Of a stretch of DNA of 64,000 nucleotides, positions 247 to 62,625 are shown piece after piece. Position numbers and translations under genes: made by a program. The first letter of the stretch is position 1. Every line of letters begins with the position of its first letter. Source of the stretch: Podarcis pityusensis (Eukaryota); the NCBI GenBank assembly GCA_964106645.2, contig OZ067042.1; one strand, given 5' to 3'. The notes below the pieces were generated by a model. It worked only from the letters and a program-made list of their open reading frames with translations, made no database searches and was not told the DNA's origin.

Positions 247-976
247 AGGCCTCAGCCACAGCGGCCGGCCCGGAATTGCGTCACTTTCCCGCGACCGGCG
301 CGCAGTCAGTGACGAAGTGACGAAGAGATTAGGAAGGGAGGCTGTTTATATACTGTATATCTATATTTCGAAACTTTTCTCTTCACCCGCCGTCTGCTCT
401 AAAAGAAAACAAAGTGTGCGCTTCATATGCATGGTCATAGTATTCTCTTACTTTGGGCCGAGCTCCATGTCTGCAGTTCTGCTCCTCGCGCACCCGTCAG
501 GCGTCTTTCCATTCGGGTCTCTACTGCCTGACGGGCGGGGGGAGGGGGAGACCCTATTTTATACCACGCGGGTGCGGAGAACATGGGCGGGGGGACCACA
601 GGAGCCAGTAAACGCGGAGAACGCGCGCTTTTTCGCAGCCCTTTGCCTTCCCCACCCTGGTTCTCCACTTATTTGCCTGCCTTTAACTCCCGTCAGCGCC
701 CACCATGGACCGTCCTGGCTGGGGCTGATGGGAGTTGAAGTCCAACAGGAACCCGGAGCCGAAGGGGTAGAGCGCCGCCCCATAGACTCGGAGGCCGGGA
801 TGGCGGGCGGCCATTTTCACAGGAAGTTCCGGCTGTGCGTCGCCACGTCCCTCCTCTGTTTGTGTGAGGGACGGGGCGCCGCGTCACGCGGGGGCAGGTC
901 CCGGAGTTCGCCGCGCGGCGCTTTCCGTTCCTCCTCGTTTTCCGTTCCTCCCGGCGGCCGTTGTGAATGCTCCGCT

Positions 977-9272
<8,296 letters not shown>

Positions 9273-32800: not shown

Positions 32801-33804
32801 TGGGCAGGCGACTCAGCACGGCCCCGCTTTGCTCTGGTGGGGGTGGGGTTGTGGCAGTGGCAAGGGCTGGCGCCTGCCCAGCTCACCCACCCTGGGCATC
32901 GACAACCAACCCTACACCACTGTTCCAGGTGTCCAATAAATGACCCAATACGAGAAGCAACAAAGAATAGCAGAAATCGCTATTTGGTTTCGGGACTGCC
33001 TTATTTTTAGACATTCTGAAAGGTGAGAGGCAGTGCTTTTTTCAGGGGGTACTCAAGGGTCCACAGTATCGGCACCTCTTTTCTTTTTGTTAAAAAGTGT
33101 GACACTTAGTGTTAACAACTTCATGGTGAGTACTGGCACCTATTTTTCTCGAAAAAAAGGACTGGTGAGTCAGATAGGAAACATTGATCCATAAATTCAA
33201 ATAGATGAGATTGAGGCTACTGCAATTTTATGACACTCTGGAGGCTATACTTTCCCCTCCTTTATATCTGAGAACATTTTTAAAGCCACAAAAATACATG
33301 GTTTGACTTTTTAGGTTTACCTTGTTGCTGCAGCTTGTAGTCAGTGGAGTAAGCTTTCCCTATAATATTCCATACAGGCTTCAAACAACCAAAGAGTCCT
33401 TCAAGAAATCCACCATTTCCACTACTTGATCTGTTGAACTGGATCTTGATATCTTCTGTTCCATTGTTGGTCTCTCCAGGTATATTATCATTGGTGCCCT
33501 GATGAACAGTAGTTTCCAATTCATCCTGTTCCGTTAACTGTAGCACGCTGTTTTCAAATTGGTCCCTGGAATCCTCACTTACACTGGTCAATACTGTTGT
33601 GGCAACTGGACTGCTCATGTTCTCTGATGCATTGCTATGAAGTAAGCCCTTGTCTCGTACGTCTTCTATGATCTCAGATGAAGGATGGAGACTACTGGGT
33701 ATATGTTCTCCATGCATCCTAGTGAAATCTTTATCTTCATTGAGGGTCTTGGCGATCACAGTCGTAGAGGAAGACCAGCTCAGGGGCTCCTGAGAACTGG
33801 TCAT
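17713..33804 (-). CDS. MAP3K13: MAP3K13 / leucine zipper-bearing kinase LZK, 13 coding exons, 944 aa (950 aa from in-frame ATG at 33822)
   Basis: Exons total 2835 nt; all GT-AG, in phase. Kinase motifs GSGAQG, HRDLKSPN, DFG, WMAPE; dual leucine zipper; SDGLSD; C-terminus ...SSATW* as in human MAP3K13. Confidence 0.98.
18592..18889 (-). CDS. MAP3K13: MAP3K13 coding exon 12 (SDGLSD at 18667-18684)
   Basis: [18 protein letters not shown]...SDGLSDKE...EHGYE. Confidence 0.97.
19008..19510 (-). mobile_element. CR1 3' fragment
   Basis: Partly the reverse complement of 22110-22260 (AATGAAGCTGAATGTTGGAAGATT). Confidence 0.75.
21085..22290 (+). mobile_element. Degraded CR1 LINE (RT region)
   Basis: [40 protein letters not shown] and KFADNTKL motifs, with frameshifts. 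Confidence 0.9.
23405..23886 (+). mobile_element. L2-clade LINE 3' end with (TTA)n tail
   Basis: [20 protein letters not shown]...[14 protein letters not shown]...KTELF, then AATAAA and (TTA)n. Confidence 0.85.
24066..24136 (-). CDS. MAP3K13: MAP3K13 coding exon 11
   Basis: [25 protein letters not shown]|gtagga. Confidence 0.96.
24322..25033 (-). CDS. MAP3K13: MAP3K13 coding exon 10 (712 nt)
   Basis: PDLLKTDG...[17 protein letters not shown]...TRPIPK|gtaaga. Confidence 0.96.
26014..26151 (-). CDS. MAP3K13: MAP3K13 coding exon 9
   Basis: [20 protein letters not shown]...GQTK. Confidence 0.96.
26798..26914 (-). CDS. MAP3K13: MAP3K13 coding exon 8 (leucine zipper)
   Basis: [23 protein letters not shown]...EKELI. 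Confidence 0.97.
27485..27594 (-). CDS. MAP3K13: MAP3K13 coding exon 7
   Basis: [15 protein letters not shown]...RRREEL. Confidence 0.97.
28491..28599 (-). CDS. MAP3K13: MAP3K13 coding exon 6
   Basis: [17 protein letters not shown]...YFKSQ. Confidence 0.97.
29351..29509 (-). CDS. MAP3K13: MAP3K13 coding exon 5
   Basis: [16 protein letters not shown]...FKILMKQT. Confidence 0.97.
29683..29841 (-). CDS. MAP3K13: MAP3K13 coding exon 4
   Basis: [15 protein letters not shown]...[18 protein letters not shown]. Confidence 0.97.
29963..30154 (-). CDS. MAP3K13: MAP3K13 coding exon 3
   Basis: [15 protein letters not shown]...HRDLKSP, donor gtgagt. Confidence 0.97.
30676..30864. mobile_element. Tigger-like MITE with asymmetric ends (CAGTCATACC / CAGTGG)
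   Basis: TA flanks; similar to 56206-56434 in the opposite orientation. Confidence 0.75.
31251..31610 (-). mobile_element. Sauria SINE (diverged)
   Basis: Same core and tail motifs. Confidence 0.85.
31702..31885 (-). CDS. MAP3K13: MAP3K13 coding exon 2 (kinase N-lobe)
   Basis: [22 protein letters not shown]...HPNIIAF. Confidence 0.97.
33321..33804 (-). CDS. MAP3K13: MAP3K13 first coding exon (acceptor at 33895)
   Basis: [10 protein letters not shown]...[30 protein letters not shown]|gtaaac. Confidence 0.95.
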
Positions 33805-34467
33805 TGTACTGTGGGTGTGCATGGAGTTGACAGTCAAAGATATTGCTCTAACAAACACCCGTGCTCACTCCCAGTGTAGAAAGTGGCCACAACACCTGAA
33901 AAAGGAACCGCAGAAAGGTTATGAGAATCATATATCTGATTACATTTGGAGACAAATATTTTAAATGAACAATAAACTGATGTAAACCAACTATTTGTTC
34001 TTCAGTTTAAGCCCAATGATTCATTTCCTAACAAAAAGGCTATCCTGTCCCAAGGAACTTTTCATACAACAACAAAAGTAGCAATTGCTTGAAGTTACAA
34101 CTGTTTTCCCACAGTTGTGGTATCTCTCAGCAATATATTGCATGCTGGACTTTGCCCATCTGTCACATTAAGCCACCTGACATCGAAACCAAACAGGCTC
34201 ATGTGACAAAACTATTGAACTATTTACATAGCTTGCCATAGAAAATCCAAGCTGCAATAGGGTCATTCCATGCATCGTAAAACAACAATTTTATTAATAT
34301 AGAATTAGGTATTTAAAATTAAAGTTAAACAAGGCTGATATACTTTGTAAATGGATTTGTTATCATAATAGCCATTCAAAACAATTGTGCCCAACTGTAA
34401 CGCAAATTTTTAATAAGTGTGCATTTAGGGGGAAACTATGGTACGTTGTGTTGTATCTCTCTATATA

Positions 34468-36347: not shown

Positions 36348-37378
36348 CCGTATTTTTCGTTCTATAGGACGCACCGGCCCATAGGACGCACCTCGTTTTT
36401 TTTGGGGGGGGGGAAATGAATAAAAAAAATTATCCCCCCCCCCCGCCGCGGCTGCCGCCCCAAGCCTCGCGTGCTTCGGGCTGCAGGCTACCGCCCCAAG
36501 CCTCGCGCACTCAGCGGGACCTCCCACCGGGCGCGCGAGGCTTGCAGACACTCGCCCGAAGCACGGGGAGCCCTCCGGAGGGCTCCCCGTGCTTCGGGCG
36601 ACAGGCTGCCGCCCCAAGCCTCGCGCGCTCGGCGGGACCTCCTGCCGGGCGCGCGAGGCTTGCAGACACTCGCCCGAAGCACGGGGAGCCCTCCGGAGGG
36701 CTCCCCGTGCTTCGGGCGACAAGCTGCCGCCCGAAGCCTCGCGCGCTCGGCGGGACCTCCTGCTGGGCGCGCAAGGCTTGCAGACACTCGCCCGAAGCAC
36801 GGGGAGCCCTCCGGAGGGCTCCCCGTGCTTCGGGCGACAAGCTGCCGCCCCAAGCCTCGCGCGCTCGGCGGGACCTCCTGCCGGGCGCGCAAGGCTTGCA
36901 GACACTCGCCCGAAGCACGGGGAGCCCTCCGGAGGGCTCCCCGTGCTTCGGGCGACAGGCTGCCGCCCCAAGCCTTGCGCGCTCGGCGGGACCTCCTGCC
37001 GGGCGCGCAAGGCTTGCAGACACTCGCCCGAAGCACGGGGAGCCCTCCGGAGGGCTCCCCGTGCTTCGGGCGACAGGCTGCTGCCCCAAGCCTCTCGCGC
37101 TCGGCGGGACCTCCTGCCGGGCGCGCAAGGCTTGCGGACACTCGCCGGGGCTGCAGGCTGCTGCCTGCAAGCCTTGTGAGCCCGCGGGAACTCCCACCGG
37201 GCTTGCAAGGCTTGCGGATAGCTTCCTGAAGCCTGGAGAGCGAGAGGGGTCGGTGCGCACCGATGCCTCTCGCTCTCCAGGCTTCAGCGAAAGCCTGCAT
37301 TCGCTCCATAGGACGCACACACATTTCCCCTTCATTTTTGGAGGGGAAAAAGTGCGTCCTATGGAGCGAAAAATACGG
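36348..37378. mobile_element. Tc1/mariner-pogo type MITE (CCGTA ends) with internal 118-bp tandem array
   Basis: TA flanks; 27-bp TIR CCGTATTTTTCG(T/C)TC(T/C)ATAGGACGCAC; 5+ copies of a GC-rich 118-bp unit. Confidence 0.92.
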
Positions 37379-39332: not shown

Positions 39333-41818
39333 TAATATTAGGCTAGATGGGCTTGGTATAAGGCAGCTTCCTATATTCCTATCATGTGAGAGGGCTCAGG
39401 TTTGGACACATCAGCCCTGAACCTGAGCATTCTATACGTTAGGTGCTATGGGTAGTAAGAGACAGTCTATGGAATAGGAAAGGGGAATTTAACCTCATAA
39501 TGTGTATTACCCCCCCACCCCAACTCCAGGGAAAGTAAGTATAATCTGTTAAAGGCATAAGCAGTCTAATTTCCTTATCTTCCCTCCCTCCTATCAGTCC
39601 CCCACCCACCCACGTGAAACTTATCAGGCTGTTGTTTTTGTTTTCTTTGTTTTGCCTTTTAATTTACAAGCTTATATACTTATGGGGGCAACTCTACCAA
39701 GTACGAACTACAACAACCTTCCTTTTGGAGTGGCACCATTTTGATTCCAAACTGATGGGCACTTGGCCCCCTACTCCCCAAAATTGCTATTAAAATAAAT
39801 TATAGAATAGTACCCTATTTCCACATGTACAGTTGCTGGATTTTTTGAAGGCAGAAAATTTTATTAATTTATTTTTTACTCTTCTTAAAGCTTTTAGTAA
39901 CACTCTGAACACCCTTAAGACAAATACTGTTTCTTTGGTCCTTAAGAATTCCAAAGATGCAACAGAATTTTTGTATTTTGACCGGGACCACAAGCTGAAC
40001 AACAAAATTAATTTTAATTGATGAAATAAGCCTTACATCTTACAAATTTATAAACATGGTCAAATATGTCATTAATACCAACTCACTTAAAGCATATCTG
40101 CAAAACAATGGAAGAAGAGTTGGAAAAATCCTAGTCATTTGGTCAACTGTAATTTGAACTTAGCAATTTCTGTATGCCATAATGGGCTGGTGGCTTAAAA
40201 AAAATATTCTGACATCTCAGAATTTTAAATGCTTTTTCCAGTTCCGATGATAAACATGAAATTTATCAGAAAAAGAGTAAACACTCTGAAGTTACTTTCT
40301 CTGGAGTAGTTGAGAATTATTAAAATGAACTTTAATACTTAAGGAATTCTATTTAACTGCACACAGGAGGAAACTGACCCTTCCTGTAGCAAGTAGTGCA
40401 AAAAAAAGAAAACCCTGACCTCTGCTGACCACAAGAGACAGAAGAGATGCAGTGCTCTTTGTCAATAATCCATCTAAAGAGATTAACAAGATGCCAAGCT
40501 TCACTTTTTGGAATTAATTAACATACAAACCACAAATCAAAGCTGCACTAGCCTTATTACAATCTGAAAAGATAGCCACAGATTTAAAAAACCCTACTAT
40601 TAACCAGTTGTTGTAATATTAAATGCCTATAAATAAGCATAAAGATCCCCCCATCAATTAAGAATGGATTTAAGTTAATTGTGTAAGAATAGAAATTTGT
40701 CATTCAGTTTCCACAACTGTACTTTGAAACATAGAGGCATGTGAACCCAGAGAGTAAGTAACAGAGAAGTAAGTAACAAAGACAACCAGGTATCAAGGGA
40801 GTGGATGTCCCAGTGAAGAGAAAGGGTAAGATGCATTTTTTTCCAAACATGGAAACCAGGGTTGTGGGGTGGTTTTTTTGTTTTTGTTTTTTACTTTTCT
40901 TGCTTTGTTACTCTCACCTTTTTTTTTTGTTACACTCGTCTTTTATTCTAGGCACAATGTCAAAAATAGAGCTTTACATGTATTTCCAATTTCAGCAACA
41001 AACTCAGGAAAACACTATGTTGTAACTTAGGATGGGAGCATTAAAAATGAAGTGGAGCCAGAACTATTAGGTCCAAGGCATTTGCCTGAAATATGTTTTT
41101 GTCACTTCTGGTACTTCTTTTTTTCAGCAATTTCTGAAAGGGCAAGATTCAAGGGTAAGATACATTGCCATTCCGTATGAACTCTCACTGATTTCACTAG
41201 CAAGCAGGACAATCAAACCTCAGCAAGGATAATCTCAGTAAACAGTAAATCATTGGGACTTTATACCTATTTTTTTTTTATGTTAAAAGAAGCCATTTTT
41301 ATTTCTACGGAAGGATTTAATCATTAAACTTCTCCTTAATACCTAAATTGTTCCCAAATCCAGTCAAAATATATTGACAAACATCTTAAGTTTTATTAAA
41401 AAGCTGCACCACCATTGAAGATTACATTTTCACAAGGACGTGGGAAGAGGGAGAAGTCTCCTGTTTTAAGATCAGTTGCAATTTTCTCCCTTGCTATTTG
41501 CGATCTCTGCTTTTTCAGACAGCCACAGAAATGCATTCTCTCCCATTTTAAAAAGAGGGAAGGACCATTACACAACCTCCAGAACAACCTCCAGAACAGC
41601 AAATGAAACATGTCTATGTTTGCTCTACAAAGAAGTAAATGGGCAGAAACAGAAATATTCTTGGCTTTAATATGGTCTCTTTCAGCATTTTTTCCAGTCC
41701 ACTCACACCCCAAATGCACCATCCATCTGCTCCTCTGAAATAAATGGCAGGAAGGTAACATCGGTCATTTTGCAAACGCAGCCCCTTGAAGGAAGACAGA
41801 TTTTGTTAATATACTTAC

Positions 41819-42170
41819 GGTGGTGAGTAATTTCTACAATCCTGCTCCATTTTCATGCGTTATGATGTGGACGGCAGAAAAACGAAACCCAAACCTGATC
41901 TGCAAAATACAGCAAGGAAATTCCACCCACACAATCCTGCAACCCCGCTGCAAAGGAGAACACAGACACTACTGACGTCACAGATTCATGAATGGATGTA
42001 TACGGGGCTGTTTTAGGTTTCAGAATACAGCCTGCTGTGGTGTGCTCTGAAAAAGGAGGGGGGAAGAGAAGAGGAGAGTCAGGTGGGACAGCCAATCAGA
42101 ATCAGGCAACAACAGCCTGCCTTTCTTCAGAGGAATCTCATCACAGAGCAGGCAGATGCTACCAATCAAA
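41819..42170 (-). promoter_or_regulatory. MAP3K13: Candidate proximal MAP3K13 promoter and 5' exon
   Basis: Consensus donor CC|GTAAGT at 41819/41818; perfect CRE TGACGTCA at 41973-41980; CCAAT boxes at 42092 and 42162. Confidence 0.6.
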
Positions 42171-49200: not shown

Positions 49201-51275
49201 ACCATTATGTGAACCCATGGTTTACTTTTGGCATATGAACCAGGGCCTGTTTTAACTATAGTTTGTTTGGACACTCAACCCCAAAGGCTAACTATGCTTC
49301 AAATGTGTGAGACAAGAGCAACTAGAAAACAAAGAAAGAAAGCTTTGTAAAAGCAGACCATAACATGCTTGTTAAGATGATTTACTGAACAAATCATGGC
49401 TTAGCGATAAATGTGAACACAACCATAAAGATATTTCAATGCTGTAACATTTTGACCAATTTTCTGTGAGTTATATATCACCCGCCCTATCATGTCTAAT
49501 ATGCATTAGTTCTTATGTGTACAGGCAGCAACCAATTTGTGTGGGGGTTACATTCCACGTTGGCAGGGGTTAGGGATTGCTACCTGCAATTTCTTCCACA
49601 AAACACAATGACTGTTAAAACCTACAAATAAATATTTAAAAGGTATCAACAGAGGAAAACTTATGTTCCTAACATACAGAAGCCTTTATCAGCAAGTCCT
49701 TTTGGATGACACCAACTAAATGTCAGTGTGATTTCTCTCTCTCTTTTTTTTGATAGTTTGTTTGTTCACTTGACAGAATTGCATCTCTAAAACACCACAC
49801 AAAGCAAAAATAACTACTTACTGTCCTCAAATTGTGGATTCCAGAAGAAGGGTAACAATTCACGACTCATTTTTGGAAGCTTTAATTATCCATGCATTCC
49901 TGCTGATTGGGTCTGTTTGACGCTATCCCCCAAAATCTGGATTTTAGTGCACTGGGGGGGAAATTCAAACAGTTAGTCAAACATATGCACATTTTGTGAT
50001 TTATAACATTTACAAAAGAGCGCACACTATGTAAAGAAACTATGTTTGTTTCCTGCCAAATTCTAGGGAATGTTCTTGTTGGATATATAATCCAAGAGGG
50101 AAAACTTCATTTAAGGTGCAGAGCTTAGGCACAAGACTAGGACAACTTAAAAATACTACAAGAAACAAATGCAAAATTGAGTAAATTCTGCTTTTTTGTG
50201 CACAGCATGGGGGGACTTAACTCTGCACTATTACATGAACCTGCTTATTTGCTCAACATTGCATAAAAATATTAAATAAAATCATGGTGAAATTTAACAT
50301 TTTTCTTTCTGGCAGCCTGAGGTAAAAGCAGAAAATAATTTCTTGAGAAGTGTGTTTTAACTGTTCCAAAGAGAGTTTATTCTCACCTTCGCAGTTACAG
50401 CTTCTGAAAGGTTTATAGAGTAAGTGCATTTGTCCAAACTTTGTTGAAACCAATTTGATTATAAACAATAAGGTGATTTAATATTGTTTTTGACAAATTG
50501 CTTTTGTTTTTATTTTAAATCCACTTTAGAAGAAAAATATTTTTAAAAATTGTATATAAAATAACAATAATAAAATAAATAATAATAAAATAAACTTAAC
50601 TATTCCAGAAGGTTGTACCACTATGGGGCACTGCTATATTAATAGGGTTTACTTCCTGATAAATTAGTGTAAGACTGCAGAACTCTTTTTTTTTTAAAGC
50701 AAAAATAACATCACAGTAACATTAAAATATTATTGTCAACTTTTAGAAGTTGACTATGGACATCAAAACTGGCATTTTCACTAATGCATACTATTTTTAA
50801 CATTTTGTTTATTTAGATATTTATTCTCTCAGAGTCAAAACATACAATGGTCATAAAATAAGATAATTGTAAAACAGGTTAAAAATCACATCTAAGATTT
50901 ACAATAATAACTATCTAAAAACAACTGTTTTCAAAATCAGCACTAAAAAAAATAGCAGCAATACTTAAACATTATAACATTAAGAACCTAGATAGACTAA
51001 TATCATTATCACTTAAAAGCAGAAGAAAACAAAACCAGTCAATGAGAGAAACACACATCCAATGGGAGGGAATTCTGTAACAATGCAGTCAGCATTGAGA
51101 AAGTCTTCTATCTGCCTATCTCTCCATAGGACAAGTTCATTTAAGCTGGTGGTACAAAAAGGGCACAGACTGTAAAAACTTTAGACAAATTTGTATCTAC
51201 TAACTGCTCTCCGTTTTATAATAAACACTCCATTCAGTACTCCATTCTGGGTTTGCTTGCTATTTCCCCACTTAC

Positions 51276-51318
51276 GTAATTGCTGTGCAAGACAACAACC
51301 CTGTGGTGGGCCACAAAT
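51276..51318 (-). other. Candidate 43-nt 5' exon
   Basis: tatttcccccag|ATTTGTGG...CAATTAC|gtaagt; both splice sites near consensus. Confidence 0.55.
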
Positions 51319-52060
51319 CTGGGGGAAATATATTGATAAGCATGCTTTCATTGATGGCAGGTGTTTTCATGTATGTTTGCATGTAACATGTGATCAGGAC
51401 ACCATGAGCAAATACCTAAGCCTAAAAGATATGGCAGGAAACAAATTTAAATTTAAATGAACTTATTTGTTGTAACATATCTTACTAGGAACTCTTTCTA
51501 GAATGTAAATCCTTCAGCCCCTTTTATTGCACTCCCTGTGCATCAAACATGAATAGGAAGGTCATAGAGAAGCTCTCTTGATGATGCAAAAATTAGCTCT
51601 GCAACTCACTTCCAAGTTACAACCATATATTATTTAATTTATATCCTACCTATCTGGCAGTATTCTACTTTACAAATGGAAATACCAGCTGCAACATTTA
51701 ATCAATTGAAAGCTTAGTCAGTTAAAAGCTTGCTTTTTTCAGAGCTGTTGTTTTAATGCCTATGCAAATTTAACAAATGCATTATTCCACTCATTAATCA
51801 ACTAAGAATTATTTAATCACATGACAGCCCTAAACAAATCCTCGTTTTTGATATTATAACAAGTAGTTAATACATTACAGATTGTAGCAGCATACTTAAA
51901 ACAATGTGCACAATCAAGTGTTCTGAAAGAAAATTCAGAACATGAGCTAGTCTAAATCTGGAACCATGTTAAATCATTTGACTAGGCAAGGACAACATCT
52001 CGCACATGCCAAAAAATCTGTATAAAAATTATGGTGTTTCATTTGGCCCTAAGTACAGAT

Positions 52061-53657
52061 AACCTAGCAGTTCAAAAGCACGTCCGAGTGCAAGTAGATA
52101 AATAGGTACCGCATTTCCGTGCGCTGCTCTGGTTCACCAGACGCAGCTTAGTCATGCTGGCCACGTGACCTGGAAGCTGTACGCCGGCTCCCTCGGCCAA
52201 TAAAGCGAGATGAGCGCCACAACCCCACTGGAGCGGTACCTATTTATCTACTTGCACTTTGACGTGCTTTCGAACTGCTAGGTTGGCAGGAGCAGGGACC
52301 GAGGAACGGGAGCTCACCCCGTCGCGGGGATTTTAACCGCCGACCTTCTGTTTTTTTTTTTTTTTAAATATTTATTGGGGTTTACAATAGAAATAAATAT
52401 AATAAACAGTGTAACATATATCTTAACATAATTTCACATTTTCTTTGGACTTCCTCACATCTCCCGCTCCCACTTTCATCGTTGTAACATTTTGCCAGCA
52501 ATTTATTATCTTATTTGCATTCTTATATCCCATCTGTATATTTATAATCTTATAATTCTCAGAAAAGTTCATATTTTCTCAATTTCACTTATTATCTTAA
52601 ATCATCTAATTTAGTGGTGCTCAATTATTTGTGATCTAGCATCCTGCTTAACATTCACTCAAATTACAATGTTTTTGTAAATAGTTCTTAAATTTCTTCC
52701 AATCCTCCTCCATCTTCTCTTCTCCCAGGTCACGGATTCTGCCGGTCATCTCGGCCAGTTCCATATAGTCTATCAGTTGCATCTGCCATTCTTCCAGTGT
52801 GGGTAGATCTTGAGTTTTCCAGTGCTTTGCGAGAAGTATCCTTGCTGCTGTTGTTGCATACATAAAAAATGTCTGGTCCTTCTTTACCACCCCTTGGCCG
52901 ACAATGCCCAAAAGAAAGGCCTCTGGTTTCTTAGTGAAGGTATACTTAAATACCTTTTTCAGTTCATTATAGATCATTTCCCAGAACGCCTTCACTTTAG
53001 GGCAGGTCCACCAGAGGTGGAAGAATGTTCCTTCACTCTCTTTACATTTCCAGCACTTATTATCAGACAGGTGGTATATTTTTGCAAGTTTGACTGGGGT
53101 CATATACCATCTATATATCATTTTCATTACATTTTCTTTCAAAGCATTGCATGCAGTAAAGTTCAACCCAGTACTCCACAACCTTTCCCAGTCCTCAAAC
53201 ATGATATTATGCCCAATGTCCTGCGCCCACTTTATCATAGCCGATTTAACCATTTCATCTTGTGTATTCCATTTTAACAGCAAGTTATACATTCTTGAAA
53301 GTACCTTAGACTTTGGTTCTAACAGTTCTGTTTCTAGTTTCGATTTCTCCACCTAGAACCCTAGTTTCTTGTCATTTTTAAAGACTTCTTTAATCTGAGC
53401 GTAATGTAACCAGTCTCGCACTTTATCCTTCATTTTCTCCAAACTCTGCAATTTCCAGTTGTCTCCATCTTTTTCTAGTATTTCCCAATATTTTGGCCAT
53501 TTAGCCTCCATATTGGGTCTTTTTCGGGCCTTGGCTTCCAAAGGTGAAAGCCACCTTGGAGTTTTATTTTCCAACAAGTCTTTATATTTTGTCTGAACCG
53601 CCGACCTTCTGATCGGCAAGTCCTAGGCTCTGTGGTTTAACCCACAGCGCCACCCGC
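52061..53657. mobile_element. Sauria SINE fragments: + at 52061-52227; - at 52228-52350 and 53596-53657, split by an L1
   Basis: Match the copy at 4552-4900; the SINE resumes exactly after the duplicated target site. Confidence 0.85.
52351..53595 (-). mobile_element. 5'-truncated L1-clade LINE (ORF2 C-terminus, 3' UTR, poly-A)
   Basis: Zinc knuckle CWKC...HLWWTC; one in-frame stop at 53353-53355; AATAAA plus poly-A; 16-bp TSD AACCGCCGACCTTCTG (52335-52350 and 53596-53611). Confidence 0.92.
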
Positions 53658-54099
53658 GTAGCAAGCAGTAAACTCTGCAACAAGGCGTTGCAAGGTGTGG
53701 GCCATAGCTGGTATCCACTGGGTCCCTTCCAACTCTACAATTTTGTGATTCTACAAAGGATCACACACAAACCACACGTGTGGTTTCCAAACGCATCTTT
53801 ATCAAAAGAACAGTGATTCACTTGACTTGGGGAAGTGGTAAAACATATGTTTGGCACACAGAAGGTCCCAGGTTCAATCACAAGCATCTCTAGCGAGGGA
53901 TGAGAAAATCCACTGCGTGAAAGACTAAGGAGCTGCTGCCAATCAGTGCAAACAATACTAAACGAGATGGGCCAACGGTCTGACCCAGTGTAAGGCAGCT
54001 TCGCATGTTCCTAATCGATGGAAAGCAGAATGGAGTGTGCAGCTGGTGGTGAAGAGCATCCAGCCATGTGAAATGGTGGGAAGGGGTTTCAGGGAGCGA

Positions 54100-54900
54100 T
54101 TTTTGTGGAATCAGAACAGGGTTGTTACAAGCGCGTCCCTGTTTCCATCTGCCAAGTATCGAGGAAGAGGATACGCCTGGTGGCGCGGATGTGCGGATTG
54201 CGTGCCCCAAAGACACCAGCGACGAGCTGCGGTCCTGCCCGCACCACGTAGCCAGGAATCCGTGTCTGAGGTGAGGGAAATCCCCTCAGCCGGCGGGGCA
54301 AAGGAACCGGCAGGACCCCCTGCCCAAAGCAGCGCCCTCTCACAAGGAAATGCTGCGAGAAACTCCCCCCGGCCAAACCCCGGAGGTGCCTCCGCGCGCC
54401 CAACCGCCGCCACGCCGCGAAACCGCGGCCCGAGCCAAGGACGCGCGTCCCCCCAACTAGCTCGCTCGCCTCACAGCACCCCGTTACTCACCGCCCAACC
54501 GCCGTCCTGAAGCCACTAGCGGCCATTGGTCCTCCTCCCACCTGCCGGGCCATCAACAGCGCGTCACTTCCGGCATCACCTGACACTAAAGCAAACGCTC
54601 TCGGCCGCCAACCTTGTGTTTTGGGTCCTCGACTTCCGGCTCCACGACGCCTCCGGAAGCTGCGCAGTGCTTGGAAGGCTTACATAAATGCGTTTAATTC
54701 GGGATGCGGCTTAAAGCGTGTTCAGCCTAAATCGCTTTTAATGCCAATGTGAACTTTGAAAGGCCAGAGGCTTGCGGCTATTCCAAGTACCAATTTCTCC
54801 CTCCTGCTTCCTATTCCGCAGTAACCTATACAGCGCTCTCGTTATAGATAAATAGCGCCGCGGGGTTCGACGGCAGTTGCAGCAGAGATGGAAGCTGGAA
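54100..54900 (-). promoter_or_regulatory. MAP3K13: CpG island; candidate distal MAP3K13 promoter and first exon (donor at 54492)
   Basis: CpG-rich; composite CRE/ETS GCGTCACTTCCGG (~54561-54573); further CTTCCGG/CCGGAAG motifs; minus-strand donor CG|GTGAGT. Confidence 0.7.
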
Positions 54901-56205
54901 TTCTATATACACACTTACCTAGGAGTAAGCCTTAATGAACCTAAGTGGACTGACTTCTGAGTAGATGCACACAGGATTGCATTGTGATCAACTAATTCAC
55001 ACCCATAGGAGCCAAGGTTCCTACAGCCCTCCCAATAAAATATTTGAGGGGACCGCTCCCTCCCCTCTAGGATAATGGGCATTGCTATTCAAATAGGGTT
55101 ATGTGATCGATTTTTATTTTTATATTTTCACACCTAAGTGAAAAAGCTATTTTCGTTTTGTGAATTCATCTCAGGTGCGTATCCAGGGGGTTGGCAAAAC
55201 TGGCCTCCGGGGGCCAAAAATCCCCCCAGAAATCTGTCTCCAGTTTTCTCTTTCTCTCTCTCCTTGACTATGCTGGAGATGGACATAAAAGGGGACCAAA
55301 AACAAAAAGGTGTGGAAACCTCTCATCGACATCGCTAAGCAACGATTATTTGCTCTGCTATGCTCCCGCAAGGGTATCTGGCTGCCTGTGGAGCAGCTGA
55401 TCCATTGTTTGGGAAAGAAGAGCGGGGCTGGCGGGGTAGGCGGAGCAGCTTTCCCTGCGCCTGTGTATGTGAGTGACTTGAGTGGGCATGAGGAGGAGGA
55501 GGAGGAGAATGAAATGAATGAAATTTGCTTTCGCAGCCAGACTTCCCCGTTTCTAAAAGCGAGCGATCCTTCTCCTTTCGCTTTCCCCGGTGGGTTTGGG
55601 TTAAAAGCGGATCTACACGGATCCTCATGGATCCTCCACTTTTAAAAAAATAACTCCAACAAATCCAGTGTCAAATCACATCTGGAAGTGTCAAATCACA
55701 TCCAGTGTCAAATCACAACCTACAGACTGGACTATAAAAAAAGTGGATCCAACACTTAGCCGTGCTGCAGCACCACAAAAACATGGATCCTCATGAATTC
55801 ATATGATTTTTATATTGAAACAAAATAAAAACACCATGATACTCTACACCTCGTATTTGTCTGTAGGCAGAACCAAAAAAATCATGTATCCACTGTTTCA
55901 TGGTACCGCAATGGCGCAAAACCATGGTTGAAAAACACGGATCCTCATGATTTTTGCACTAGATCAGCCCAAAGTCATCATCGGATCAAATATCATGGCC
56001 ATGTCACAACCTGTACCACAAAAATAATGGATCCACAGCTTCCTGGCGACACCGTGGCCCAAAACGTGGTTTTGCATTGGGCCACTCCAAACCCACCGTC
56101 AAATCACACATCATAGCCAGGGGCACAGCCTGCACCACAAAAATCACGTATCCACAGCTTCCTGGCAAAATTCACTGCAAGTTAAGCCCTAAAACAAAAT
56201 TGGTA

Positions 56206-58472: not shown

Positions 58473-59025
58473 GACTAGAGAGTTTGGGATTAGAGCATTC
58501 TGCATATCTGATAAAAAGCACAAATCCATAGGGTTCCCCCCTCCCATCAATCTGTGGGGAATTTGATGCCCCTCCCCCCTTCAGCCTCCAAAGGGGGGCG
58601 GAGTTGCAGAGAAACAAATATCTGGGCTCTGTTGCTATACAGTGGTGCCCCGCAAGACGAACGCCTCGCAAGACGAAAAACTCGCAAGACGAAAGGGTTT
58701 TCCGTTTTTTCAGCTGCTTCGCAAGACGAATTTCCCTATGGGCTTGCTTCGCAAAACGAAAACGTCTTGCAAGTTTGTTTCCTTTTTCGTAAAACCGTTA
58801 AAACCCAGGGTGCATTGCTGGAAGAGGTGCAGTTGCGACTTGACCTCGAGGAGCAACACATTGCACGCGGTGTGGTGGCCTTTCTGAGCTTTTTAAAGAG
58901 TTTGCTGGATTTTTGAAGCTTTTCCAAAACTTCTTTTGCAGCTGTTTGGTAAGTTAAACTTTTAAAACTTTTTTTGGGTTTTTTGGATTTTGGGTTGGGG
59001 TGTTTAGAATTCAAGGACTTGGTGT

Positions 59026-59700
59026 TGGGGAGGGGTTTGCAAGAATCTGGGAGCTTGTGTGGTTTTTTTCTGCATTTTTATGATTTTCTGTGACCATTGG
59101 GCCATTTTTTTTTTTTTTTAAATATCTGGGTTTGAATTTTTGAATTTCTGTGTGCTGGGTGGATGGGGGAACAGCTGGGGAGGGGTTTGCAAGAATCTGG
59201 GAGCTTGTGTGGTTTTTTCTGCATTTTTATGATTTTCTGTGACCATTGGGCCATGTTTATTTAAAAAAATAAAAATAAAAATCTGGGTTTGAATTTTTGA
59301 ATTTCTGTGTGCTGGGTGGATGGGGGAACAGCTGGGGAGGGGTTTGCAAGAATCTGGGAGCTTGTGTGGTTTTTTCTGCATTTTTATGATTTTCTGTGAC
59401 CATTGGGCCATGTTGTTGTTTTTTGAAAAAAATTTCAGGGTTTTGAATTTCTGTGTGCTGGGTGGCTGTGGAAACAGCTGGGGAGGGGTTTGCAGGAATC
59501 TGGGAGCTTGTGTGGTTTTTTTTTTTTTAATTTTTATGATTTTCTGTGACCATTGGGCCATGTTGGTTTTTTTTGAAAAAAATTTCAGGGTTTTGAATTT
59601 CTGTGTGCTGGGTGGCTGGGGGAACAGTTGAGGAGGGGTTTGCAACAGTTGGGGAGGGGTTTGCAACAGTTGGGGAGGGGCTGGGGGAACAGTTGAGGTT
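59026..59700. repeat. ~150-bp tandem repeat (4 full copies plus partial) inside the Tigger 5' region
   Basis: GGGGAGGGGTTTGCAAGAATCTGGGAGCTTGTGTGG... recurs at ~59026, 59177, 59334 and 59480. Confidence 0.9.
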
Positions 59701-59932
59701 TTTGAAGACTTTAGTGATTTTTAAAGCTTTCCCAAAACTTCTTTTGCAGCCATTTGAGGATTTTGAAGACTTTGGTTATTTGCAGCCATTTCGTAAGTTA
59801 AACTTTTAAAACTTTTTTGGGGGTTTTTGGATTTTGGGTTGGGTGTTTGGAATTCAAGGACTTGGTTCTGGGTTTGAATTGCTGGTTTTTTTTTTCTTTT
59901 TCTGAGTTTACAAAGGTAACAGCTGTGCTGCC

Positions 59933-61636
59933 ATGGGACCCAAGAAGACTGCTGCTGCTGCGGAGGCCGGCGAGAGGAAGAAGGAGAAGGTGACGCTGGA
60001 GATGAAGAAGGAGATCATCCGGAAGCACGACGGTGGAATGCGTGTGACGGACCTCGCCAGGGAGTACGGCAGGAACCCATCGACCATCGGGACCATCCTG
60101 AAGATGAGGGAGAAGATCCTTGCGACTGATGCAGCCAAGGGAGTCACCAGGATCGTGAAGAACCGCCCAGCTGTTCTGGAGGAGGTCGAGAAGTTGCTGC
60201 TCATCTGGTTAGAAGAGAAGCAGCGTGCAGGGGACACAGTGACTGAGGCCGTCATTTGTGAGAAGGCCAAGGCCTTGCACGCAGACCTCATCCGGGAACA
60301 GCCAGGAACCTCGGCCAAGCCAGAAGTCTTCAAGGCAAGCAGAGGCTGGTTTGACCGGTTCAAGGCAAGATCTGGAATCCACAGCGTGGTCAGGCATGGA
60401 GAGGCTGCCAGTTCTGATGTTCCTGCGGCTGAAGACTTTGCCTTGGAGTTCCTGGAGGTTGTGAAGACGAAGGGCTACGTTCCACAGCAGGTCTTCAACT
60501 GCGACGAGACCGGGCTGTTTTGGAAGAGGATGCCCAAAAGGACTTTCCTCACACAGGAGGAGGCCAAGTTGCCTGGCCACAAGCCCATGAAGGACCGTCT
60601 GACCCTGCTCTTCTGTGCCAACGCAAGCGGCGACCTGAAGATCAAGCCCCTGCTGGTGTACCACTCGGAGAACCCACGGGCCTTCAAGAAACACAAGGTC
60701 GACAAGGAGCGGCTGAGTGTCATGTGGCGATCCAACAGCAAGGCTTGGGTCACACGTGTGCTGTTTGTGGACTGGGTCAATCTTGCTTTTGGCCCTGCTG
60801 TCAAACAGTACCTGCTGGACAACGACCTGCCGCTGAAGGCTTTGCTTCTGATGGACAATGCTCCTGCTCATCCTAAAGGCCTTGAGGTGGACTTGTTGGA
60901 GGAGTTCAGCTTCATCAACATCATGTTCCTGCCGCCTAACACCACGCCACTGCTCCAGCCAATGGATCAGCAGGTCATCGCCAATTTCAAGAAACTCTAC
61001 ACCAAGGAGCTTTTCAGGCGATGCTTCGAGGTGACTGATTGCACCACCATCACCCTGCGGGAATTCTGGAAGGACCACTTCGACATCGTCACCTGCTTGA
61101 AGATGATCACCACGGCCTGGAACGGGATCAGCCAGAGAAATTTGAATTGCGCTTGGCGCAGCCTGTGGCCGGACTGTGTGGCACCAAGTGACTCTGATGC
61201 ACCAGAGTCAACAGTGGTGCAGGACATTGTTGCCTTGGGGAGGACCATGGGCCTGGAGGTCACAGAGGAGGACGTCTGCGAGCTGGTGGAGGAGCACGAC
61301 CACGAGCTGACCACCCAGGAGCTGGTTGAACTGCAGTCAGAGGTTGCGCAGGAGCAGGCCTCGCTGGAAGAGGAGGAAGCAACTGAGGAACGGCCGTCCT
61401 CCAAAGAACTGAGGGACATTTGCCAGAAGTGGAAGGAGGTGCAGGCTTTTGCAGAGCGGCACCACCCTATCAAGCACGTGGCACATGACCAAGCGAACAC
61501 TTTTGATACGACGGTCATGTTGCCTCTCAGGGAGCTGCTGAAAAAGCGGATGAAGCAGCAGACCATGGACAGGTTCCTCAGCAAGAAGCAAAGAGTGGAA
61601 GAGGAACCTTCTTCGAGTGGTCCCCCAGAGTCTTAG
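59933..61636 (+). CDS. Tigger/pogo transposase, 567 aa (CENP-B-type HTH + DDE_1, DD36D)
   Basis: Uninterrupted ORF with GCCATGG Kozak; motifs FKASRGWFDRFK, VFNCDETGLFWK, KDRLTLLFCANASG, LLMDNAPAH, QPMDQQVI; 36 residues between the second and third Asp. Confidence 0.95.
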   Translation: MGPKKTAAAAEAGERKKEKVTLEMKKEIIRKHDGGMRVTDLAREYGRNPSTIGTILKMREKILATDAAKGVTRIVKNRPAVLEEVEKLLLIWLEEKQRAGDTVTEAVICEKAKALHADLIREQPGTSAKPEVFKASRGWFDRFKARSGIHSVVRHGEAASSDVPAAEDFALEFLEVVKTKGYVPQQVFNCDETGLFWKRMPKRTFLTQEEAKLPGHKPMKDRLTLLFCANASGDLKIKPLLVYHSENPRAFKKHKVDKERLSVMWRSNSKAWVTRVLFVDWVNLAFGPAVKQYLLDNDLPLKALLLMDNAPAHPKGLEVDLLEEFSFINIMFLPPNTTPLLQPMDQQVIANFKKLYTKELFRRCFEVTDCTTITLREFWKDHFDIVTCLKMITTAWNGISQRNLNCAWRSLWPDCVAPSDSDAPESTVVQDIVALGRTMGLEVTEEDVCELVEEHDHELTTQELVELQSEVAQEQASLEEEEATEERPSSKELRDICQKWKEVQAFAERHHPIKHVAHDQANTFDTTVMLPLRELLKKRMKQQTMDRFLSKKQRVEEEPSSSGPPES

Positions 61637-62625
61637 AAAATGTAATGTACCCTTTTTTGATTTTTACATGTTTTTCCTGTCATGTTTAGAAACTTAATTT
61701 ATTGTTCCTTCAATTTTTGATATGCTCTTTAAAGTATGTGTGACTTTAAAGAGCAGTTAATAAACTCTTGTTGTACCAAATTTGGCTTTGTTTGGACTTT
61801 TTTTGACCATAGGAACGCATTAATTGAATTTCAATGCATTCCTATGGGAAACCGTGCTTCGCAAGACAAAAAATTCGCTAGACGAAAAAACTCGCGGAAC
61901 GAATTAATTTTGTCTTGCGAGGCACCACTGTACAAAGCTTAATAGAAATGATAAATGGAGATGAGATGAAATGGAATTACAAACAATATAGAATGTATAC
62001 AGAAAAGGGGAAAGAGAAAATTGAATATATGGTAATTCACACAAAATCCAGTAAAATATGACGGAGCGAATGATTAGCAATTGGATATGATTTGCATGCT
62101 TATTAGCAAATGGCAAGCACTGGCAAAGCAATAAAAGGGACTAACATATTCAATAATAATTTTTTAATTAATTTTCAATTTCAATCCAATAATAGCCTCA
62201 TTATAACGATACCAAACTATAATACAATTACAAACACCTATTGTTCAAATACAAAATTATATAATTTAGGTGGCCTCCCATTTGCTAGAATTGATGGTTG
62301 ATTATTTTATTTCTGCGTTCCAAAATCTTACGGATTTCAATTACATTCCAGTCAAAAAAAATTTCCCTTATACAATTGCAATATTCACTCCATAAATAAT
62401 AAAGGATGGGGAAGAATCAGCTCTAAGTCCCCATCGTAAACCTTTTGCAAAATAGAGTTTCCCTCCCTTTTTCCTTTTTTTTTTTTTTTTTACACGCACA
62501 GTTCTGTTTGATGTTATCTTCCATATCTATAATATGGATCAGGCTTGGTTTCTAACTGCCTCTGAGTTCTGACAGAGGAGCATCACCACTCAGGAGGGGC
62601 CAGGTGGGGTTGCCACGGTGACAAG

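Follow-up and report, generated by a model that had tools for sequence, protein, structure and literature searches.

The window analysed here is a stretch of 64,000 nucleotides (nt) from the lizard Podarcis pityusensis (contig OZ067042.1; C5:38688001-38752000 within a 1.5-Gb genome), which carries the gene MAP3K13 on its minus strand. Its product, LZK, is a kinase that acts in axon growth and in the signalling of injury. The kinase exon was 97–100% identical to proteins named MAP3K13 in most of the 120 homologues listed (1131 were found), and an alligator-lizard homologue aligned to 12 stretches of the window, from 33822 down to 17719. The ATG at 33822 agrees with the N-termini of squamate MAP3K13 proteins. 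Far upstream lies a CpG island, for which an earlier note had proposed a chain of tiny exons (A to D) forming a microprotein gene that shares the MAP3K13 promoter. A distal promoter with small exons at the MAP3K13 locus fits the sequence and the human gene, whereas the microprotein gene found no support. We consider it probable that the island is a distal promoter whose small exons form a non-coding leader with upstream open reading frames (uORFs), or a short non-coding RNA, and that the frames in these exons are incidental. The coordinates are collected in Table 1.

Table 1. Candidate exons, promoter elements and the repeat fragment at the MAP3K13 locus (window positions).
Feature	Position	Strand	Remarks
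CpG island, likely distal promoter	54001..55000		GC content 0.51–0.62; CpG observed/expected 0.86–0.89
ETS/GABP motifs, CCAAT, GC box	54639 and 54573 (ETS/GABP), 54531 (CCAAT), 54496 (GC box)	-	found by motif scan
Exon A candidate (3′ part)	54492..54553	-	ATGs 54553 and 54526; GT donor 54491
Old dispersed repeat fragment	51300..51398	-	covers the initial 19 nt of B and the 80 nt that precede its acceptor
Exon B candidate, 43 nt	51276..51318	-	pseudo-exon or exonised repeat
Exon C candidate, 17 nt	50387..50403	-	carries the A+B+C stop, 8 nt before its own donor
Exon D candidate (5′ part)	50272..50316	-	strong acceptor 50316 after a 70-nt intron
Exon E candidate, 130 nt	49822..49951	-	overlooked in the earlier note; has a branch-point motif; may correspond to human distal exon 2
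Likely proximal MAP3K13 first exon and promoter	41819..42100	-	cAMP response element 41980, CCAAT 42090, donor GT 41818
MAP3K13 first coding exon	33321..33895	-	ATG 33822, acceptor 33895; in-frame stop 5′ of the ATG within the exon

The distal island is single copy in the genome. The donor of exon A, at the island edge on the minus strand, is among the best 0.5% of GT sites. Promoter anatomy and a first-exon donor pointing toward MAP3K13 thus occur together, as in an alternative promoter. GABP-type promoters are typical of mitochondrial and housekeeping genes. A genome search for retrocopies of exons A, B and C–E returned none. Both ATGs of exon A have a pyrimidine at position −3, a weak Kozak context. 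The one at 54526, which lies 37 nt from the donor, sits inside the CCAAT motif. As CCAAT boxes normally lie upstream of the transcription start site, this ATG may be absent from the RNA.

The landmarks of the proposed chain had been placed correctly: both ATGs (54553 and 54526), the end of exon A (54492), exons B and C, the 70-nt intron, the acceptor of D (50316) and that of the kinase exon (33895). Matches of the candidate sites to U1 were 7–8 of 11, compared with 5–9 for real MAP3K13 exons in the window, and acceptor pyrimidines were 10–12 of 14, compared with 8–14. The acceptor of exon D ranks in the top 0.25% of AG sites. Candidate exons were counted with a rule loosened enough to admit B and C, and the counts were compared with third-order Markov simulations (n=300). 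The 12.2 kb of 54490-42300 held 8 candidate exons against a simulated mean of 7.1 (P(≥8) = 0.43). At least three candidate exons inside 1.6 kb occurred in 63% of the 300 simulations, and the P value for two small exons inside 1 kb was 0.35. On four control strands, the clusters comprised 4, 4, 6 and 3 candidate exons. The antisense strand of 54490-42300 held just 3 candidate exons versus 8 in sense, which favours a chain above chance. Overall, the A-B-C-D chain is about as frequent as chance gives.

The acceptor of exon B lies in an old repeat. The segment 51398-51300 matched a place on contig C3 (74% identity over 100 nt, E 1.7e-6); the C3 copy matched a copy on C2, and the C2 copy matched three more on C1, C3 and C4. 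The family thus comprises 6 loci on 5 contigs. With a model made from the first three copies, the remaining three scored E 2e-18 to 1e-7 across the columns of the B acceptor. Taken by itself, the direct alignment between the window and the C2 copy was within the shuffle range. High-copy matches near exon B came from a neighbouring element and not from this repeat. The pyrimidine run at the acceptor was present in the window copy only. Because its acceptor sits in an old repeat, exon B is likely either a pseudo-exon or a piece of repeat that became an exon. According to PMC3636048, repeats often supply starts, ends and splice sites to long non-coding RNAs (lncRNAs) and rarely to coding transcripts. 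Exons C, D and E had no further genomic copy at E up to 1.

The frames translate as the earlier note had claimed: A+B+C gives 28 amino acids (aa) from ATG 54526, and A+B+D gives 40 aa. A+B spliced to the kinase exon gives, again as described, a uORF that ends before the main ATG, with the stop 25 nt 5′ of 33822. In general, the upstream frames end before the kinase ATG or are out of frame with it, as in a uORF-bearing leader. The 28-aa peptide had been likened to a mitochondrial presequence, but its basic, acid-free make-up was not beyond chance. Among 5000 simulated open frames of 28 codons with the local base make-up, 22% had no D or E, 11% additionally had at least four K or R, and 5% also had the observed hydrophobic moment, so that 5–11% were as good as the candidate. 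The end of the peptide had been called weakly similar to a type 1 peroxisomal targeting signal (PTS1). The PTS1 consensus is [SAC][KRH][LM], and YKL fails it.

Homology searches used unspliced frames only, with 14–22 exonic residues at most. Their power was therefore low, and they could not find an unannotated peptide. Within this limit, the 40 residues that close the exon A frame gave no candidate of 22–70 aa and, when length was left open, no match at E 0.001 in a set of 1.84 billion representatives; the exon E frame likewise gave no candidate of 22–70 aa. With equally few exonic residues, the Atlas scores of two exon B frames were all <0.9, and seven frames gave nothing above the cut-off in Pfam. 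An Ig_mannosidase match of the unspliced D frame (E 0.0015) was below the Pfam cut-off and was taken as chance.

Exon E was compared with human distal exon 2, the first 14 bases of which were fixed by two overlapping human frames. Among the 405 YAG sites in 54490-41900, acceptor 49951 was the top match (10/14). The expected number of 10/14 matches was 0.07 among 100 pyrimidine-rich acceptors and 0.28 among all 405 YAG sites. Exon E has 130 nt, compared with 119–127 nt for human exon 2 (provided that the listed donor is right), and its ATG lies 49 nt before the donor, compared with 48 nt in human. A+E forms a 34-aa frame; its junction phase is that of the human uORF c3norep232, and 4 of 5 residues are alike at the junction. 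Exon E weakly resembles human distal exon 2 (p about 0.07–0.25), which makes it a lead and not proof. The next best match to the human exon 2 start was acceptor 51922 on the minus strand (9/14), after which no strong donor was found. Around the last ATG of exon E (49870-49822, minus strand), the Kozak context is good, and this ATG shares its phase with acceptor 31885. Splicing of E to 31885 would yield a kinase without the N-terminal exon; no homologue among the 120 of 1131 listed has such a form.

The earlier note had pointed to the human upstream MAP3K13 transcripts as a check on translation. Three uORFs from ribosome profiling (Ribo-seq) are recorded in the human distal MAP3K13 exons: c3norep231, c3norep232 and c3norep233 (PMC10032668, supplement file 2, all three rows). 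They span chr3:185,282,976-185,291,633 and have lengths of 27, 22 and 22 aa (PMC10032668). All are classed as 'young', with PhyloCSF scores in mammals of −583, −336 and −153 and 0 mass spectrometry studies; c3norep232, with the score of −336, is de novo in Old World monkeys (PMC10032668). The young class makes up almost 90% of such Ribo-seq open reading frames, according to the same paper (PMC10032668). Compared by eye with the A+B+C and A+B+D peptides, the human uORFs showed no resemblance. Upstream frames are translated in the human gene, but these frames are unlike the A+B+C peptide, young, unconserved and PhyloCSF-negative. In mouse, 1300002E11Rik probably lies between Ehhadh and Map3k13. 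It is listed as an lncRNA in two papers (PMC7673042, PMC9606684). The four files of a list of fossil-gene lncRNAs had no row for MAP3K13, EHHADH or 1300002E11Rik (PMC5577775). In 9 of the 16 files of a list of conserved short open reading frames (one file in part), one MAP3K13 row was present, and it was an in-frame kinase fragment (PMC4568590). The literature on MAP3K13 microproteins, short or upstream open reading frames, hosting of small nucleolar RNAs (snoRNAs) and the EHHADH promoter gave no study of the locus among the matches listed.

A candidate for the proximal first exon of the kinase, which the earlier note had also overlooked, is single copy and stands at a distance of 8 kb from the coding exon. 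Its promoter motifs and donor suggest that it is likely used as the kinase first exon. Given a separate proximal first exon, the kinase is likely independent of the distal island. This likely exon, with its donor at 41818, weakens the earlier idea that one promoter chooses between a short peptide and LZK. The candidate also contains an ATG 38 nt before the donor (41856-41819, minus strand), a further possible uORF. A GC peak at 36.4–37.3 kb was ruled out as a proximal CpG island; it is a GC-rich tandem array (36470-37146, 118 bp x 5.7) that mimics one. The coding exon contains an in-frame stop 5′ of 33822, so that the kinase frame cannot be lengthened here by any exon further upstream, and an N-terminal extension of LZK was ruled out. 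None of the MAP3K13 homologues (120 of 1131 listed) started with a frame of exons A–E.

Beyond the island, an EHHADH-like gene stands head to head with MAP3K13, and the gene order is the same as in human. A 3HCDH_N domain was found in a 470-aa frame on the plus strand (C5:38778670, E 2.7e-48). An exon near C5:38758700 presumably corresponds to the EHHADH start. This putative first exon, which a Pfam search for ECH missed, lies ~16 kb past exon A, and transposons separate the two. A tight bidirectional promoter with EHHADH was ruled out on account of this distance and the intervening transposons. At the other end of the window (950–1100, plus strand), the first coding exon of a gene that we take to be TMEM41A-like lies tail to tail with MAP3K13. 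The neighbours of human and mouse MAP3K13 are tabulated in PMC5774710. A Tigger/pogo-type DNA transposon at 58640-61931 (plus strand) has an open 576-aa transposase frame (59906-61636), the domains DDE_1, HTH_Tnp_Tc5 and CENP-B_N, and matching inverted ends that adjoin TA; it looks intact. At 52350-53590 (minus strand), a 3′ fragment resembling a long interspersed nuclear element, with a 234-aa frame, a poly-A tail and a 16-bp target duplication, lies within a short interspersed nuclear element. Its 234-aa frame had no match in Pfam.

A distal promoter with leader exons is favoured because the chain is at background, the peptide composition is common, exon B is repeat-derived and the human layout is alike. 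The housekeeping-type island at 54.0–55.0 kb would initiate RNA in or near exon A, and exon A would be joined to some of the small exons in varying combinations (most likely E, next C–D, least B). The RNA would terminate a few kb downstream or continue by splicing to 33895. The uORFs that ribosomes would encounter on such a long RNA end 5′ of the kinase ATG, and less LZK would come from the distal promoter. Most of the kinase would come from the proximal first exon (around 41.9 kb), and a peptide, if made at all, would be a by-product under no selection. Several points weigh against this interpretation. The link from exon A to 33895 and the splicing of the small exons are putative. The match between E and human exon 2 is weak and was noticed before it was tested, and the human uORF results bear on mammals, not lizards. 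The geometry of C and D (a small exon, an intron of 65–120 nt and a strong acceptor) had a P value of 0.06 in 400 simulations, calculated post hoc, with 1 such case in 93 kb of controls. Moreover, three open frames across the 43 nt of exon B are mildly unusual (P 0.04). It is also conceivable, although we think it unlikely, that B, C, D and E are unspliced pseudo-exons and that the island is not tied to MAP3K13 and either serves the EHHADH-like gene at a distance of 16 kb or drives some unrelated non-coding RNA. This would agree with the background counts of candidate exons, the repeat origin of B, a genome without retrocopies of A, B or C–E and a kinase with a likely first exon of its own, but not with the strong minus-strand donor at the island edge (top 0.5% of GT sites), the assignment of the human distal exons to MAP3K13, the likeness of E to human exon 2 and the C–D geometry (P 0.06).

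We regard it as quite improbable that a genuine microprotein gene starts from the island (as A+B+C, A+B+D or A+E), with a product that is possibly mitochondrial and an alternative to LZK. The frames are open as described, and the peptide is basic and acid-free, but such a composition arises in 5–11% of cases by chance. The promoter is of the GABP type typical of mitochondrial and housekeeping genes, but the Kozak contexts are weak, and ATG 54526 lies in a CCAAT motif of the kind normally found upstream of the start site. A+E shares its junction phase and 4 of 5 residues there with c3norep232, which is itself de novo in Old World monkeys (PhyloCSF −336). The B acceptor is repeat-derived, and the low-power searches found no homologue for the A, B and E frames. 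The more specific claim of a basic microprotein kept across reptiles, likeliest from A+E, the junction that parallels the human exon 1–2 uORF, mitochondrial and replacing LZK via an early 3′ end, appears very improbable. The small exons could lastly belong to a snoRNA host gene with its useful product in an intron, a class that a housekeeping promoter, short exons and short frames would suit. For this we see hardly any likelihood. A loose H/ACA-like arrangement is present in 50230-50030, but its fold z was −1.76, and the two-hairpin form was not the minimum-energy fold. The H/ACA scan gave 7 sense versus 6 antisense candidates, the only C/D candidate had a 3-pair stem, and Rfam gave no match in the window at the gathering score and none credible at E up to 1. 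On these Rfam, fold and motif scans, with no intronic C/D or H/ACA RNA found, the host gene was rejected.

The favoured explanation is an ordinary one: as in human MAP3K13, a distant promoter would be followed by small non-coding exons with uORFs. It hints that this arrangement of distal exons (exon E) may be ancient in amniotes and may reduce LZK output. If a conserved microprotein were real, it would be one more gene at a well-studied locus.

Among known systems, MIEF1-MP, ASDURF and SNURF have, like the candidate, a short frame 5′ of a main gene and a shared promoter. Their frames are kept across vertebrates and have protein homologues; none were found for the lizard frames in our low-power searches. 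Exonised repeats in lncRNAs and leaders (PMC3636048) are like exon B, which takes its acceptor from an old dispersed repeat. The splicing of exon B, however, is putative. Human MAP3K13 has no counterpart of lizard B, C or D that we could see, and its uORFs are shown to be translated, whereas translation of the lizard frames is putative. Like the lizard candidates, the human distal exons are nevertheless small and lie towards EHHADH, at a long distance 5′ of the kinase coding exons. The human uORFs are short and spliced, and the frame from a first-exon ATG crosses the junction in phase 2, like the lizard candidate. Human exon 2 is akin to lizard exon E in its size and first bases.

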